From: a virus
Lineage: Duplodnaviria > Heunggongvirae > Uroviricota > Caudoviricetes
Strand: one strand, 5' to 3'
Virus record (IMG/VR): IMGVR_UViG_3300016472_000494
Length of the DNA stretch: 64,000 bases
Shown here one piece after another: positions 6,185 to 51,629 of the stretch. Numbering within the stretch: position 1 is the stretch's first letter; each line of letters begins with the position of its first letter. Under the pieces are notes generated by a model. The model worked only from the letters and a program-made list of their open reading frames with translations, was not told the DNA's origin and searched no databases. The position numbers and the translations under genes are program-made.

Positions 6185-7231
6185 TTAAAAAAGGTCTTTA
6201 CTTGTAATAGATTTTTGAAACTTGGTGTAATTGGTTCCTTGAGTGTTAAAAAAGTCATTGCGTACATAGCCATAGATAGCTTCTACCATCCAGTAAAGTT
6301 CACTAAGCAAGTCCTGGTCAATCTCAAAAAGCTCCTCACCACCAATAGCAACAAGCGATGAGTTGAAACGCGACTTGATAAACTCAATAACAGCAGCCTT
6401 AGAGATAGAGTCTATCTCACCTTGCTCAAAGATCCAGTCAATGATGCGAACCTCGGCGTCAAAAGCTTTGTGACAAGCACGGTAGATCTTCTGATAGAAG
6501 TCTTCATCAAACCACTCAGGGTACTCTTTTTTGATTAGGTTGATCACGTGCATGCCCAGCTGAGCGTGAATGATCTCTTCTTTCATGGTAGCTTCAATGA
6601 CAGTGTCAACTTCTTTGAGCAGATTCTTCTTTTCAATAAAAGACTTGACAATGGCAAATTGTGAAAACAGTGATACGTTCTCAATAAACATGGAGAATAG
6701 GGCCAGGTTCAGGGTGTAAACCTGCTTTGCGTTTTCTCCTGAGTTTTTTAGGTATTTGGTCAAATACTCTACGCGGCCCCCAATGACAGGGTTTTGCAGG
6801 AGCATGTCAAATTCGTCGTTCAGACCCAGTACCTCCAGCAGCTTGCTGTATGCTTCTGAATGAACGACCTCGTTTTCTGCAAAGGTTATCCCTACAGAGT
6901 TAAATTCAGGCTTGGGAATGTGTTCTCCCAGCTTGGCCCAGAATGTTTTTACAGATACTTCTATCTGTGATATAGCCAATAAGGTTCTCTTTATAGCCTC
7001 TTTTTCGCGAGGTCTAAGTTTGTGTTTAAAATCAAAGGCGTCAGAGTCAAAATTGAACTCTTCTACGTCCCAACGACTGTGCTTGATAGCTTCCCTGAAC
7101 TTTATTATTTCAGGGTACTCATATGGCTTGAAAGCCACACGTTTGTCAAAAATTCCCATATATGTTAAATTTAGTTGAATATGTAAGCTGTTACATTTCA
7201 AAGGCTTGTTTTGAAAAAGCGCTAATGGCAA
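6185..7231 (-). CDS. nrdB: ribonucleotide reductase small (beta) subunit, di-iron ferritin-like
   Basis: 348 aa; iron-ligand motifs EVVHSEAYS and EEIIHAQLGMH, ferritin-like helices; adjacent to the RNR alpha gene. Confidence 0.8.
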   Translation of the reverse strand: MPLALFQNKPLKCNSLHIQLNLTYMGIFDKRVAFKPYEYPEIIKFREAIKHSRWDVEEFNFDSDAFDFKHKLRPREKEAIKRTLLAISQIEVSVKTFWAKLGEHIPKPEFNSVGITFAENEVVHSEAYSKLLEVLGLNDEFDMLLQNPVIGGRVEYLTKYLKNSGENAKQVYTLNLALFSMFIENVSLFSQFAIVKSFIEKKNLLKEVDTVIEATMKEEIIHAQLGMHVINLIKKEYPEWFDEDFYQKIYRACHKAFDAEVRIIDWIFEQGEIDSISKAAVIEFIKSRFNSSLVAIGGEELFEIDQDLLSELYWMVEAIYGYVRNDFFNTQGTNYTKFQKSITSKDLF

Positions 7232-7551: not shown

Positions 7552-7880
7552 ATCACCCAAAAGAACAAGTTATTTCAGCCCTTAAGGAGTGGGCAAGCCC
7601 TGTTTTAATAGGAATTGTAGGGATGCTGCTGTGGCGCGATATCACAGAAATGCGGGCAGATATAAAGCTTCTGCTGACACAACAAAGCGCTGACAGAGTC
7701 AAGATAGAACAGCTGGAATATGACGTTAAATTACTTAAAGAACTGTATATGACAAGCGCTCGCACTGACGGTACATCCAGGACACCTTTTCAAGAACTGC
7801 CGTTGTTAGAACGACAACCTGCGTTTATTCAAAGAGATGAGGAACTGTATGTAAATAACAAGCACAAAAACAAAAAATGA
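7536..7880 (+). CDS. type-II membrane protein with periplasmic coiled coil (i-spanin-like or holin-associated), first gene of lysis cassette
   Basis: 114 aa; single TM VLIGIVGMLLW then heptad-like DIKLLLTQQSADRVKIEQLEYDVKLLKEL; basic C-terminus; ATGA overlap with the next gene. Confidence 0.4.
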   Translation: MQNLQNHPKEQVISALKEWASPVLIGIVGMLLWRDITEMRADIKLLLTQQSADRVKIEQLEYDVKLLKELYMTSARTDGTSRTPFQELPLLERQPAFIQRDEELYVNNKHKNKK

Positions 7881-42032: not shown

Positions 42033-42212
42033 CCCTCTGCACTCAGTTGTTATTGGTTGTACTCAAGACCAATATTCATCACATCTTACCTATCAGGACA
42101 TCCTGTGGTATTATCCACATTACTACCTGCTTTTTATGCAGCACCCATAACTTATGGGTAGTGAGGAGACGCTCTGTGTGATTACAACTGCTCATCCTTG
42201 GGAGGCTGATTA
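42033..42212 (+). repeat. composite structured repeat, unit A (left arm CCCTCTGCACTCAGTTGT ... right arm TTACAACTG plus hairpin)
   Basis: left arm 42033-42056; right arm ttacaactg 42182-42190 then imperfect hairpin tcatcc-ttggga-ggctga 42191-42209. Confidence 0.6.
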
Positions 42213-42427: not shown

Positions 42428-42630
42428 TGGTAGTCAGGACAGGAATCGAACCTGTATGCCATTTGTGGTTTTCTCTTATTACTGTTGCAACAGTACCACC
42501 AGCGTTTTGCAAATTCTGTATGTTGTCCGCTTACTTCTAACATACAATATCAACCTTGCGGGTCAATCTTCGCGTCTACCATATCCAGCACATACTATTA
42601 CTCTTTGTGCCTTCATTCCGCCACCTGACT
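42428..42630 (-). ncRNA. tRNA-like element 1: acceptor stem, T-arm and encoded CCA present, but ~200 nt long with an insertion in the D-region (disrupted or intron-bearing tRNA, or tRNA-derived sRNA)
   Basis: minus strand 5'-AGUCAGG UG GCGG AAU [33-nt insert] UGGUAGACGC ... ACAGG UUCGAUU CCUGU CCUGACU A CCA-3'; acceptor arms exactly complementary; T-loop GGTTCGATTCC seen as ggaatcgaacc at 42441-42451. Confidence 0.45.
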
Positions 42631-42825
42631 AGGTAACACCCTAATTTATCCAACTTACAGGTGTTGTGGCTGTCCTCATCACTGAGTTAGGACTAATCAT
42701 TCGTCCTTACAAGGTCGGGCTGACTTGCCCTGGTGTTCTGCCTATACACCAATGTACGTTCCCATACGGACATCACTCCGTTTCTCATCATGTTGGGCAC
42801 ACTATCCGTTGTATGTTTCGGAACG

Positions 42826-42967
42826 TGTAGTCAGGACAGGATTTGAACCTGTAAGCAGGATTAAGGTCATGCTTTTTCAAGTTTTCCAGTATCCACTTCA
42901 AGTTCCCTTACCTTTGAAGCGATAACTTTCAAATTCACTTGGCGTCTACCAATTCCGCCACCTGACT
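42826..42967 (-). ncRNA. tRNA-like element 2 (paralogue of element 1, 137 nt): canonical acceptor, D-arm and T-arm with a ~60-nt insertion in the anticodon region
   Basis: 5'-AGUCAGG UG GCG GAAUUGGUAGA CGC ... ACAGG UUCAAAU CCUGU CCUGACU A-3'; D-loop with GG; candidate anticodon stem CAAGU...ACUUG split by an insert. Confidence 0.45.
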
Positions 42968-43364
42968 GTGTTGAGGATGAGAAGTCCTCTGTGTTGTAGA
43001 GGTAAGTTGCAGAAGCGACTCTCTTGACATTCCTTTCTCAAGGGAACAACACAATGTCTAAAAACAACTACAGTGCTACGTTTCAAGTGGCTTATTAAGC
43101 CTTCGTAGGTACAATAAGGTGATCAACCCTCGTAAATACCCTTCATGCACTGCAGTTGTTTTAGACAAAGTATAGCACTAAGTTGTAACTGGTTCTGCGT
43201 CATAAATCCCCTATTTAACTCCACAAAGGAGATTACAACAGCTTACCTCGTATTAATACCCTTTGCACTCAGCTGTGCGGTCAGATTGTTAAGGTATAAT
43301 AGAGAATTAGTAAGTTTTCATGCTAAAAGCATACTTTAACCAGTATGCCAGTGGTGGGTCAAAC

Positions 43365-44252: not shown

Positions 44253-44515
44253 GTTAATTACAAGATTTTAGTGGTCAAAATAATACAAGTAGAAATTTAG
44301 AGCACCAGCGCCAGACATACCAACGCCGCTCGTTGGTCTGCTTTTATCGTTTGATTGTAGTTTGTACCAGGTCAGAAACATTGGGGTGCTTCTGTGTTAA
44401 AGCGCCTGTACAAACCAGAGGAGAGGAGCGGAAATATTTTTCTCACAGATCTGCCTGGCGCGGGTGACTCTAATGCTTCTACAGGGAGAGAGAGACAAGA
44501 CAACAAGGTCTTCCT

Positions 44516-44640
44516 CTTAGCACTTAGTTGTAACAAGTGGCACCCATTTGCAGGTAGGTGTTCTCCAATGGTTTCCTATTACAGCATACGTTCTGTAATA
44601 TTCCCTGCTTGTTCTTGTTACAACTGCTCACGGTAGTGAG
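44516..44640 (+). repeat. composite structured repeat, unit D
   Basis: left arm cttagcacttagttgtaa 44516-44537; right ttacaactg 44618-44626 plus hairpin ctcac-ggta-gtgag 44627-44640. Confidence 0.55.
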
Positions 44641-44865
44641 TTAGTGCTTTGAGAATAATATAAACAGTTGCAATAGTAAGATTAGTGGCGCTATTGCCCT
44701 TAATACCTTGCTACCAAAATACAACTATGCTGCCTAGCATACAACCTCAAGCCATAAATGAATGGCATAGTCAGGTTTACATAGTACTTAATGTGTAGAC
44801 TTACTAGTAAGATAAGTTAATCTACTATTGCAACTGGTGTTTAAAAAAGATCCCTCTGCACTCAG

Positions 44866-45072
44866 TTATAATGTATAAGAAACACCAAAATGTTGCTCAA
44901 TAGCATATAGAGCTTCCCAATCATTACCTAACATTTTATTGTCTATGCAGACATCAACATTTAATTCTTTAGCTCTTTTCCATACATGAAAAGCTTCTTC
45001 AGGTGTATGTGCTATTGAAAATAGCTGCATATATTCTTCACCTGATTCTTTGTTTTTAATAAATTCCACCAT
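44866..45072 (-). CDS. small hypothetical protein
   Basis: 68 aa; its stop is overlapped by a left-arm repeat copy (44849-44873). Confidence 0.3.
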   Translation of the reverse strand: MVEFIKNKESGEEYMQLFSIAHTPEEAFHVWKRAKELNVDVCIDNKMLGNDWEALYAIEQHFGVSYTL

Positions 45073-45118
45073 ATAGTTAAGTTTTATAGTTAAGTTTTAA
45101 GTTTTACAAATCTATTAA

Positions 45119-45269
45119 CCCCTCTGCACTCAGTTGTAATATAGTTTTCACAAAACATGGCTTTACATAGTCATTATGCTATGAAGGTCTTCACCTCACG
45201 GATGTTTGTCACTTTTATTACAACTGCTCACCCTTGGGAAGTGAGTTATGGTGCATTAAAATTGGTTGA
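45119..45269 (+). repeat. composite structured repeat, unit B (most complete copy)
   Basis: left arm ccctctgcactcagttgtaa 45119-45138; right ttacaactg 45218-45226; hairpin ctcac-ccttgggaa-gtgag 45227-45245; tail ttatggtgcattaaaattggttga 45246-45269. Confidence 0.65.
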
Positions 45270-45397
45270 TAACCCACAACCTTTCTAAAGGGGTTCTAGT
45301 AAAAGCTATAACCAAATGGTTAATACAAGGCAGCTAAACCTAGAAACAATTGCAAGACTGAATCTGCCTATCACATTCTTGCTTTACAATTAATATT

Positions 45398-45549
45398 CCC
45401 TCTGCACTCAGTTGTAACAGGGTCCGGTGGTACCTATTTCAATTACCTTTTTTCAAGGAGCTATTTCAGCCTTACTTTCAACCCTTTACGTACAGGTTAC
45501 TTCAGTAGTGTTATTCACACTGGTAATTATTACAACTGAGTGCAAAGAG
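45398..45549 (+). repeat. composite repeat, unit E: perfect-type terminal inverted repeats (~20 bp) flanking ~110 bp (MITE-like)
   Basis: ccctctgcactcagttgtaa (45398-45417) versus ttacaactgagtgcaaagag (45530-45549), reverse complement with a 2-nt indel. Confidence 0.65.
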
Positions 45550-45792
45550 AATAAGTTAATCAAGAAATGAAAAAGACATTGTATGGCAAAAACTGATAGA
45601 TTATAGCCATTTAGTGTCAAAATTTGAGCGTTCTGAGAGGTTTTTGAGGTGATTAAGAGGATGAGGAGGGGTGTGCTACCACTCACGTAACTTCTTGCTC
45701 ATCAACAACTTACTGAACACTTATGTGTCAAAAAAGCAACTGAGAAAGCGCTGTGTAAATACAGCAACTTTCTCAGAAACTTGTTCAAGTGC

Positions 45793-47358: not shown

Positions 47359-47586
47359 GAGAATTGGGTTTATTGGTTAATGGTGTATCAGTGTGGTTTC
47401 ACATCTTAGATATTTTACAAGAGTTAAGCCTTGATATAAATCTGGTTTCCTCAAAACTAAGAAGTCTTCATACCCAAAGGTTAGTGCAAAGAGAAATTTG
47501 ATTAACTAGACGAGTCTGCTATCGTCCACCTACGTTTTAGTGCAACCTTTCTTGAGGTGTAGTTTCGGTTAATCAAATGAGTTATC

Positions 47587-47730
47587 TCTTTGCACTTAGT
47601 TGTAAGTCTGCCTGGCAAATATTATTACAGTTTAAATCGTGATCTGATTAGTACACGAAGGCTGTAAACCAGGTATTTCTTACAACTGTCAGCCCTTGGG
47701 AAGCTGAAATGGTGCATTAAAATTGGTTGA
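47587..47730 (+). repeat. composite structured repeat, unit C
   Basis: left arm ctctttgcacttagttgtaag 47587-47607; right ttacaactg 47680-47688; hairpin tcagc-ccttgggaa-gctga 47689-47707; tail aatggtgcattaaaattggttga 47708-47730. Confidence 0.65.
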
Positions 47731-51527: not shown

Positions 51528-51600
51528 GCCACTTTAGCTCAGATGGTAGAGCGACTGATTTGTAATCAGTAGGTCGTGGGTTCAATTCCTACAAGTGGCT
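51528..51600 (+). tRNA. tRNA-Thr (anticodon UGU)
   Basis: 73 nt; acceptor GCCACUU/AAGUGGC, D-arm GCUC-AGAUGGUA-GAGC, anticodon arm ACUGA-UUUGUAA-UCAGU, T-arm GUGGG-UUCAAUU-CCUAC, discriminator U; CCA not encoded. Confidence 0.85.
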
Positions 51601-51629
51601 CTAATTTTTCTTAAACCAACTCCAACCCT

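Follow-up and report, generated by a model that had tools for sequence, protein, structure and literature searches.

The question raised by the phage DNA considered here is what sort of genes two tRNA-like elements can be that keep both ends of a transfer RNA (tRNA) and have no anticodon arm between them. The elements, E2 and E1, lie on the minus strand of a 64,000-nucleotide (nt) stretch (the window below means this whole stretch) of the Caudoviricetes record IMGVR_UViG_3300016472_000494 in IMG/VR. A sequence-only reading of the window had noticed them and offered three explanations: pseudo-tRNAs made by invasion of mobile repeats, tRNAs with unusual small introns, and tRNA-derived small RNAs. 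The last of these proved nearest to the evidence, but it missed the membership of both elements in a very large family in which a constant frame holds exchangeable cargos. We consider it probable that E1 and E2 are genes for stable noncoding RNAs, each consisting of a tRNA-Leu frame that carries such a cargo.

Two tRNA-Leu frames without an anticodon arm

In both elements the 7-bp acceptor stem is perfectly paired, the D arm is that of tRNA-Leu, the T arm is canonical and the discriminator is A; the anticodon arm is absent from both (Table 1). E2 begins with AGUCAGGUGGCGGAAUUGGUAGACGC and ends with ACAGG-UUCAAAU-CCUGU-CCUGACU-A, and E1 begins with AGUCAGGUGGCGGAAU and ends with ACAGG-UUCGAUU-CCUGU-CCUGACU-A-CCA. 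The full complementarity of the acceptor arms and the canonical T loops reported earlier were seen again in both sequences, as was the D arm of E2; the terminal CCA that had been ascribed to both is encoded only in E1, and the DNA after the E2 discriminator runs on as ...ACACG. The earlier length of about 200 nt for E1 agrees with the exact figure of 200 nt to the discriminator, and that of 137 nt for E2 is corrected to 140 nt. The upper half of each element is that of a canonical tRNA (7-bp acceptor stem, discriminator, UUCRANU T loop, and D arm with G18-G19); the lower half is not, as there is no 5-bp stem with a 7-nt loop containing U33 and an anticodon, and the lengths of 140 and 200 nt compare with ∼70–95 nt for tRNAs. 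In the window, a 21-nt 3′ motif and a 16-nt 5′ motif each occur exactly twice (chance expectations 0.01 and 0.18, respectively).

Nucleotides 5–26 of E2 are 100% identical to Escherichia coli tRNA-Leu genes (22 nt in the acceptor/D-arm region), which argues that the frame is the top half of tRNA-Leu and not a generic pair of hairpins. It thus seems fairly likely that the frame represents the tRNA-Leu top half or elbow, with its 7-bp acceptor stem, U8, A14, G18-G19, D stem, U48, T arm and A73. The Rfam tRNA model (RF00005) matches E2 at 33.7 bits (gathering score 29), although only in a sensitive search, and its alignment places 76 nt as a local end where the model has 18 positions, which are the whole anticodon arm; this bears out the earlier statement that E2 has extra sequence there. 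The same model has no match to E1 either at its gathering threshold or at E up to 10, so that of the Rfam checks proposed earlier the tRNA one was positive for E2 only, and those for tmRNA (transfer-messenger RNA, SsrA) and Y RNA (also at E up to 10) found neither element. ARAGORN, also proposed, likewise calls neither; its sole call in the window is a tRNA-Thr. A covariance model of the frame (R1) has exactly two matches in the window, E2 at 73.2 bits (E = 2.6e-15) and E1 at 58.6 bits (E = 7.9e-12), and gives the true tRNA-Thr only 15.6 bits.

Constant frame and variable cargo across many phages

More than 120 contigs of IMG/VR contain the 21-nt 3′ motif, GGTTCRAWTCCTGTCCTGACT, with at least 163 copies and up to seven exact copies per locus among the matches listed; this listing is a lower bound, and the family statistics below rest on it. 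In the listed elements the ends are constant, AGUCAGGUGGCGGAAU(U)GGUAGACGC ... (U)ACAGGUUCGAAUCCUGUCCUGACUAC, and what lies between them differs in both length and sequence. The family frame described by R1 reads AGUCAGG-UG-GCGGAAU(U)GGUAGACGC ... U-ACAGGUUCRAWUCCUGU-CCUGACU-A-C, and both E1 and E2 fit it. In a first set of related loci (given L numbers here) R1 has 230 matches in 0.9 Mb, with 10 or more of them within 3.5 kb in L012, and a second locus set added 113 for a total of 343 across 173 sources.

Among 196 unique elements the median length is 103 nt. The discriminator at position 73 is A in 91%, position 74 is C in 98% (the ordinary tRNAs of the same arrays also have C74), position −1 is U in 79%, position 8 is U in 93%, and position 14 is A in 86%. 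The region between the D stem and position 48 is hypervariable throughout, and position 48 itself, the last base before the T stem, is U in 83%, being kept in spite of the hypervariable cargo that adjoins it. The U8-A14 and 15-48 pairs are core tertiary contacts of tRNAs, and bacterial RNase P prefers U(−1) as leader base; U(−1), C74 and A73 may be read, from sequence, as indirect signatures of tRNA-type maturation. We judge it more probable than otherwise that the anticodon/variable-arm region has been replaced by a cargo of ∼20–130 nt that differs from element to element.

In 111 distinct elements of the second set, aligned by a fit to R1, pairing reaches 99.4% in the acceptor stem and 99.5% in the T stem, and all 16 frame pairs show compensatory changes; when partners are slid by one to three columns, pairing falls to 32–42%. 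In more than 100 elements, strong purifying selection acts on the RNA structure of the frame.

The canonical tRNA-Leu genes of the same phage arrays differ from the family in their acceptor and T-arm sequences. There are also short members that resemble true tRNAs on the same acceptor/T arm, namely 71–74-nt tRNA-Lys(UUU) genes in L019, L051 and L079 and a tRNA-Leu(CAA)-like gene in L047, which suggests an origin for the frame. ARAGORN run on L012, L018, L051, L078, L097 and other loci gives family members spurious identities and odd anticodons, for example, tRNA-Pro(agg), a 93-nt tRNA-Glu(ctc) and "???" with two- or four-base anticodons; automated tRNA counts for phages that carry the family are therefore inflated.

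Such short members, and the group I introns known in cyanobacterial tRNA-Leu(UAA), speak for E1 and E2 being working tRNAs (for leucine or other amino acids) with greatly enlarged anticodon/variable arms, or with inserts that are spliced out as the intron idea had it. However, ARAGORN finds no anticodon loop in either element, the Rfam model must skip the entire anticodon arm, and canonical tRNA-Leu genes with other acceptor stems share the arrays. No contiguous deletion restores an anticodon stem-loop (a 7-nt loop on a 5-bp stem), and the helices of E1 are conserved as a unit (below). The Intron_gpI model, which detects an intron in L011, finds nothing in the window at thresholds as loose as E = 10. 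Without an anticodon arm the elements are not decoders, and with neither a group I core nor a residual anticodon arm they are not intron-bearing tRNAs; we regard working tRNAs as very improbable.

The cargos themselves are highly diverse. Among the matches listed, 165 unique cargos of at least 25 nt form 140 BLAST clusters, 123 of which are singletons, and none matches any Rfam family. Taken together, the cargos have a small but significant folding advantage over dinucleotide-shuffled sequences (mean z = −0.56, p = 7e-11). The E1-type cargo is the one that can be followed comparatively. A 15-mer pattern from it gave mostly chance matches in coding DNA, and a more specific gapped pattern was used instead; with it the cargo was found in ∼12 distinct phage contigs, always within a tRNA-like frame, and in L194, L264, L276 and L277 it sits on frames whose acceptor, D and T sequences are different. 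In an alignment of 11 sequences with the D-loop inserts removed (A3), 96.7% of the cells are paired and 25 of the 44 pairs show compensatory change, compared with 33–45% paired in slid controls. The structure comprises the acceptor, D and T stems and five cargo helices, P5 enclosing P1 and P2, and P3 enclosing P4; RNAalifold independently recovers all but the 3-bp P5. (Minimum free energy folds of whole single elements broke the D arm and were unreliable, and the comparative analysis was used in their place.) Long single-stranded stretches, AGAnGUAAGCGGAC, AAACGCUGGUGGUAC and GAGAAAACCACA, are invariant in E1-type elements, which points to tertiary structure or a binding surface, and a pseudoknot between AGCG and CGCU, neither side of which ever varies, is possible. 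The cargo is functional RNA and not junk.

The 89-nt cargo of E2 is an orphan. A 19-mer scan found no homologue of it in IMG/VR (one chance match lies inside a gene), and in one scan of metagenomes the sole match was to the same phage at 99.98% identity. Its predicted fold, for which the minimum free energy is −17.6 kcal/mol (z = −1.37), has putative hairpins CAAGU...ACUUG and AAGCA...UGCUU. The first corresponds to a split stem suggested in the sequence-only reading; its two strands are indeed present, but their pairing is ambiguous as ACUUG occurs twice. Hairpins that look like an additional T arm (NNNN-UUCGAUU-NNNN) are present inside several other cargos, for example, in L038 (3721–3808), L132 (2961–3079), L110 (291–416) and L029 (484–643), and they suggest reuse of T-loop modules.

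E1 also has the 33-nt D-loop insertion that had been reported, which folds as a hairpin, GGCACA-AAGAGUAAUAGUA-UGUGCU. Its supposed likeness to the local repeat family did not hold: the window contains just one copy of the insertion, and the local 18-nt repeat ACAACTGAGTGCARAGGG has no relation to it. The same D-loop hairpin is found in L269. It also recurs in an L029 element with a different cargo, and there reads GGUACA-...-UGUGCC with pairing preserved through one-sided changes; hairpins of two other kinds occupy the D loop in L067/L194 and in L086. E1-type elements without a D-loop hairpin exist (L012, L217 and L270–L274), so the D loop is an optional second insertion site and not a site of disruption. 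That the hairpin is an insertion, and that the local repeat is abundant in the region, are the points in favor of regarding E1 and E2 as decaying tRNA-Leu pseudogenes disrupted by mobile or repeat DNA. Against this, the inserts are not repeated in the window, the E1 cargo covaries across its ∼12 phages, the frame is under purifying selection, and the E1 copy in L269 is 95.6% identical even though its adjacent elements differ. Single-copy inserts and covariation of both cargo and frame led to rejection of a pseudogene disrupted by a repeat or a miniature inverted-repeat transposable element, and we find this explanation scarcely credible.

The relation between the window and L269, a close relative with flanks 88–95% identical, shows how whole elements change places. 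The order of features is leader, E2, spacer, E1 and downstream sequence in the window, and leader, E1, spacer, E3 and downstream sequence in L269, where E3 carries a third cargo. The breakpoints of homology fall inside the constant ends: window positions 43169–42952 (the leader and the first 16 nt of E2) align with the L269 leader and the first nucleotides of its E1, and positions 42455–42338 (the E1 T arm and downstream sequence) align with the T arm of E3 and the sequence downstream of it. A wider comparison gave at least 17 pairs in which elements from different contigs carry cargos that are 90–100% identical within 250-nt flanks whose identity (55–63%) is at the noise level of the aligner.

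These breakpoints, the identical elements in unrelated flanks, and the near-identity of the frame among unrelated phages would also be expected if the function lay mainly in the DNA, with the constant ends serving a cassette-shuffling system as its repeats or recombination sites, much like the attC sites of integrons or the promoter stem-loops of T4-type phages, and the tRNA likeness being a relic. However, the compensatory changes maintain the acceptor, D and T stems as well as the cargo helices, which indicates selection on RNA pairing and not on DNA, conservation extends to the unpaired tertiary positions (U8, A14, U48 and the T loop), and no recombinase or integrase is associated with the family across the loci. 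A DNA-level role alone for the constant ends is therefore improbable.

The carriers are diverse phages. Even the protein cluster most often found next to the elements, a terminase, is limited to 16 of the 148 loci, and the window phage itself is distantly crAss-like (its TerL shares ∼25% identity with the TerLs of crAss-like and Flavobacterium phages). A search for host tRNAs that the elements might mimic found no normal tRNA with the family 3′ end in the genomes of 185,579 species; the same collection gave 28 matches, mostly in contigs of freshwater metagenome-assembled genomes that resemble phage DNA, many labeled Chitinophagia, Sediminibacterium, Flavobacterium or Saprospiraceae and others binned under unrelated phyla. 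The sole match in an isolate is a tRNA-Arg(CCU)-like gene of Hymenobacter montanus BT664 (NZ_JACXAD010000011.1; L133, ∼6800–6885), whose 3′ end is the family T-arm/acceptor sequence, unpaired with its own 5′ strand; it may be the footprint of integration of, or recombination with, a phage element.

Outside the window, family members often lie within islands of tRNA and tmRNA genes. Phage tmRNAs are present in such islands at L083 553–939, L097 5724–6218, L066 4975–5349 and L011 7832–8193, and in L011 a group I intron (7609–7837; 97.8 bits) abuts the tmRNA gene. An Rfam search of 16 related loci found only tRNAs, tmRNAs and one group I intron.

Proposed role and comparison with known RNAs

We propose that these elements would be transcribed within RNA-gene units; in the window, such a unit would extend from the repeat at 43276 and take in, in order, a structured leader, E2, the spacer and E1. 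Host tRNA maturation, with RNase P cutting the 5′ end and the 3′ end being trimmed and completed with CCA, would excise each element precisely, and the L-shaped fold would shield the RNA from decay. Leucine, serine and alanine are anticodon-independent identities, and tmRNA uses alanine for that reason; the choice of a leucine frame is suggestive in this respect, and the RNAs may be charged with leucine and bound by EF-Tu, since the bacterial leucyl-tRNA synthetase requires A73 and the elbow and not the anticodon arm. In E. coli, leucine identity resides in A73 and A14, and the anticodon arm is not needed for leucylation (PMC9976931). The cargo would be the working part: a folded module whose targets would be factors of the host or the phage, and which might serve as a regulator, a decoy, or an aptamer for a protein or ligand. 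The constant ends would provide portable homology, so that recombination within them could gain, lose and swap elements between phage genomes. A more far-reaching version of this, which is possible but which we hold only tentatively, is that phages of freshwater Bacteroidota (and possibly others) have a modular RNA cassette system in which one universal tRNA-Leu frame serves as processing and stability handle, possible aminoacylation handle and recombination site, and shuffles a large and fast-evolving repertoire of aptamers and decoys much as an integron might for small RNAs, with the cargos acting in host takeover or counter-defense.

Charging could also be the purpose of these RNAs. They might be aminoacylated tRNA mimics, charged with leucine, that act as tmRNA does or as decoys or competitive inhibitors in translation or tRNA-directed immunity; the targets would be host enzymes that read the acceptor/T-arm half (toxins that modify the acceptor end, tRNA nucleases, or transferases that depend on aminoacyl-tRNA), with the cargos tuning specificity. 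It is consistent with this that the frame retains the exact leucine identity set (A73, A14, U8 and the elbow) that is sufficient without an anticodon arm, that tRNA ends around an inserted domain are the topology of tmRNA, that the family co-occurs with phage tmRNAs and tRNA arrays, and that fast turnover of cargos would suit an arms race. On the other hand, nothing in the sequence requires charging, and G3:U70, a tag reading frame and a tmRNA call are all lacking. A decoy of the constant half would need no hyperdiversity of cargos, and no defense or anti-defense genes are linked to the elements in the loci examined. We regard such mimics as rather unlikely.

Several observations weigh against the proposal of stable cargo-bearing RNAs. 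The window has no tRNA array, and its only tRNA is 8.5 kb away on the other strand. Cargo complementarity to the window and to the elements' own loci is no higher than in shuffled controls, so that no antisense target was found there, and no partner protein was found among the flanking open reading frames (ORFs), the window ORFs or the 148 loci. The anatomy, the lack of an anticodon arm, the extent of the family, the purifying selection on RNA structure and the cassette behavior are shown by the sequences; processing, stability, aminoacylation and the binding partners of the cargos are parts of the proposal that we infer. The alignment behind the family-wide pair counts for the 111 elements was fitted to the model R1, the near-identity of the frame in unrelated phages could reflect recent spread or gene conversion in place of functional constraint, and the A1-U72 pair is unusual in elongator tRNAs. 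The structure and function of the E2 cargo are without comparative support because it has no homologue outside this phage. A single 17-nt complementary match was noted in L002.

The known RNA closest in design is tmRNA. Its 5′ and 3′ ends likewise form a tRNA-like acceptor stem and T arm, a large structured domain replaces the anticodon arm, its synthetase identity ignores the anticodon, RNase P processes it, and phage tmRNAs occur in the same RNA islands as the family. The two differ in that family elements have U-A at pair 3-70, and not the G3:U70 of alanine identity, and are of leucine type; they have a full D arm and no tag reading frame; and their cargos are 20–130 nt and hypervariable, whereas tmRNA has ∼250 nt of conserved pseudoknots and tag ORF. 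There is no ARAGORN or Rfam tmRNA match in the window, and the same tools detect true tmRNAs in related loci.

Phage T4 species 1 RNA (rnaC) is similarly a stable phage RNA of unknown function, 139 nt long and encoded in a tRNA cluster, with a 3′ T arm (CCGGG-UUCGAAU-CCCGG) and an acceptor-like 3′ strand. Its acceptor pairing, however, is imperfect, it has no evident leucine-type D arm, and it is a single gene as opposed to a multi-copy family with a constant frame and interchangeable cargos; no sequence similarity between them was detected, and by eye only the generic T loop is common to both. Bacterial type II tRNA-Leu shares with the family A73, A14, U8, G18-G19, U48, the T loop and 22 identical nucleotides, and the family differs from it in lacking the anticodon stem-loop, in the A1-U72 pair and in lengths of 57–203 nt. 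YrlA is reported (bioRxiv 10.1101/312249) to be a noncoding RNA of bacteria and some phages that mimics the tRNA elbow (D and T arms). In YrlA, however, the two ends of the RNA pair into the stem that binds Ro60 and enclose the tRNA-like module, an arrangement that is permuted relative to the family. As the family ends form the acceptor stem, and there is neither a Y-RNA match in Rfam (E up to 10) nor a Ro60 gene nearby, Y RNA and YrlA were rejected as identities for the elements.

The "tRNA scaffold" of Ponchon and Dardel is reportedly an engineered device for recombinant RNA expression. It has the same design, in which an arbitrary RNA replaces the anticodon arm and a precisely cut, stable product results. 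The scaffold is man-made on tRNA-Lys3 or tRNA-Met frames, whereas the family is natural, uses tRNA-Leu, sometimes has the D loop as a second site, and exchanges cassettes. Near as they are in design, tmRNA, T4 species 1 RNA and the scaffold are all kinds to which the family does not belong.

Rfam 15 has no model for the family, none of the cultivated phages in INPHARED has a match to the elements, and a full-text literature search, beyond whose reach many subscription papers lie, found no description of it; a survey of viral structured RNAs lists only generic "tRNA-like" candidates (PMC10690425). This large family of small phage RNAs is thus apparently undescribed so far, and there is a real chance that its constant-frame/exchangeable-cargo organization is categorically new relative to the tRNA-like noncoding RNAs already known. 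If the RNAs are expressed as proposed, phages would be using the tRNA-scaffold principle of RNA biotechnology at scale, some genomes having at least ten differently loaded frames, and hundreds of selected, folded RNA domains, each delimited by its frame, would be unusually simple to collect, produce and test for ligands or partner proteins. The family would also offer a comparative handle on the T4 stable RNAs of unknown function and, through exchange at constant ends of ∼25 nt, a testable route of modular evolution of noncoding genes. Annotation would be improved as well, as tRNA finders miss members or give them spurious anticodons, which affects tRNA counts and arguments from codon usage.

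Surroundings of the elements in the window

E2 and E1 occupy a 1.3-kb noncoding stretch of a block in which small ORFs lie on the minus strand. Pfam has no match to the flanking ORFs, and other ORFs of the window are replication, nucleotide-metabolism or structural genes.

Table 1. Positions of E2, E1, their parts and neighboring features in the window
Feature	Position	Strand	Description
E2 tRNA-framed RNA	42828..42967	-	140 nt including discriminator A73
E2 5′ frame	42942..42967	-	Acceptor 5′ strand AGUCAGG (42961-42967), U8 G9, D arm
E2 D arm	42942-42958	-	GCGG-AAUUGGUAGA-CGC
E2 cargo	42853..42941	-	89 nt in place of anticodon and variable arms; orphan sequence
E2 3′ frame	42828..42852	-	T arm ACAGG-UUCAAAU-CCUGU, acceptor 3′ strand CCUGACU, discriminator A
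E1 tRNA-framed RNA	42428..42630	-	200 nt to discriminator (42431) plus encoded CCA (42428-42430)
E1 D-loop hairpin insert	42582..42614	-	33 nt, between A14-A15-U16 and G18-G19
E1 cargo	42456..42571	-	116 nt, multi-helix conserved domain (comparative alignment)
E1 P1 and P2 loops	within 42456..42571	-	P1 loop CGCAA; P2 invariant loop AGAnGUAAGCGGAC (alignment A3)
E1 junction	within 42456..42571	-	GCAAAACGCUG, after the P5 domain (alignment A3)
E1 P3	within 42456..42571	-	Encloses P4 (loop UGCA) and internal loop AAGAGAAA (alignment A3)
E1 3′ frame	42431..42455	-	T arm ACAGG-UUCGAUU-CCUGU, acceptor 3′ strand CCUGACU, discriminator A
E2-E1 spacer	42631..42827	-	z = −1.39 for the whole spacer
Leader motif adjoining E2 upstream	42968..43052	-	Within the 291-nt leader 42968-43258
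18-nt repeat	42033-42050, 43259-43276, 44514-44531, 44852-44869	-	Motif count
18-nt repeat	45120-45137, 45398-45415, 47586-47603	-	Motif count
18-nt repeat	45532-45549	+	Motif count
tRNA-Thr(UGU)	51528-51601	+	72.9 bits; only canonical tRNA of the window, at the switch from minus- to plus-strand gene block

The 291-nt leader of E2 has a predicted fold of −93 kcal/mol (z = −6.2). Its motif consists, in order, of GUGUUGUUCCCUUGAGAAAGGAAU, a variable hairpin, ACAACAC, the hairpin GAGGA-CUUCUCA-UCCUC, and AACAC, and is common to the window, L269 and L073. The loop sequence UCUCA could pair with UGAGA in the 5′ part, to which it is complementary, in a pseudoknot or kissing interaction. The 20-mer core of the motif has more than 120 exact matches in IMG/VR, and 31 of 59 "type A" copies sit 2–6 nt upstream of a tRNA or tRNA-like RNA; a second leader subtype continues differently. 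No Rfam family matches the motif (E up to 10). The leader is a second RNA motif that travels with genes of the family. The spacer too ends (last ∼45 nt, UGAGGACAGCCAnnACACCUGUAAGUUGGAUAAAUUAGGGUGU) in a hairpin leader, which also precedes an E1-type element in L270.

The 18-nt repeat is present in eight intergenic copies between 42033 and 47603, where 0.07 would be expected by chance, and seven of the eight are oriented with transcription of the minus-strand block. One copy (ACAGCUGAGUGCAAAGGG) lies ∼290 nt upstream of E2 and another lies downstream of E1. We infer that these repeats are candidate phage promoters that bracket an E2-E1 RNA unit; a scan of the window for sigma-70 promoters and terminators gave counts equal to the shuffled expectation. 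Four copies of the repeat fall in a mostly noncoding segment of ∼900 nt (44655–45567) in whose place L269 has only ∼90 nt, and this is a second insertion/deletion hot spot near the RNA genes.

The upstream flanks of family members are generally structured (mean z = −0.7). A recurrent hairpin with the loop GAAAGA (for example, CCUCG-GAAAGA-CGAGG) lies upstream of members in L012, L110, L045, L194 and L276, where it is followed by AACAY and then by the 5′ end of the element.

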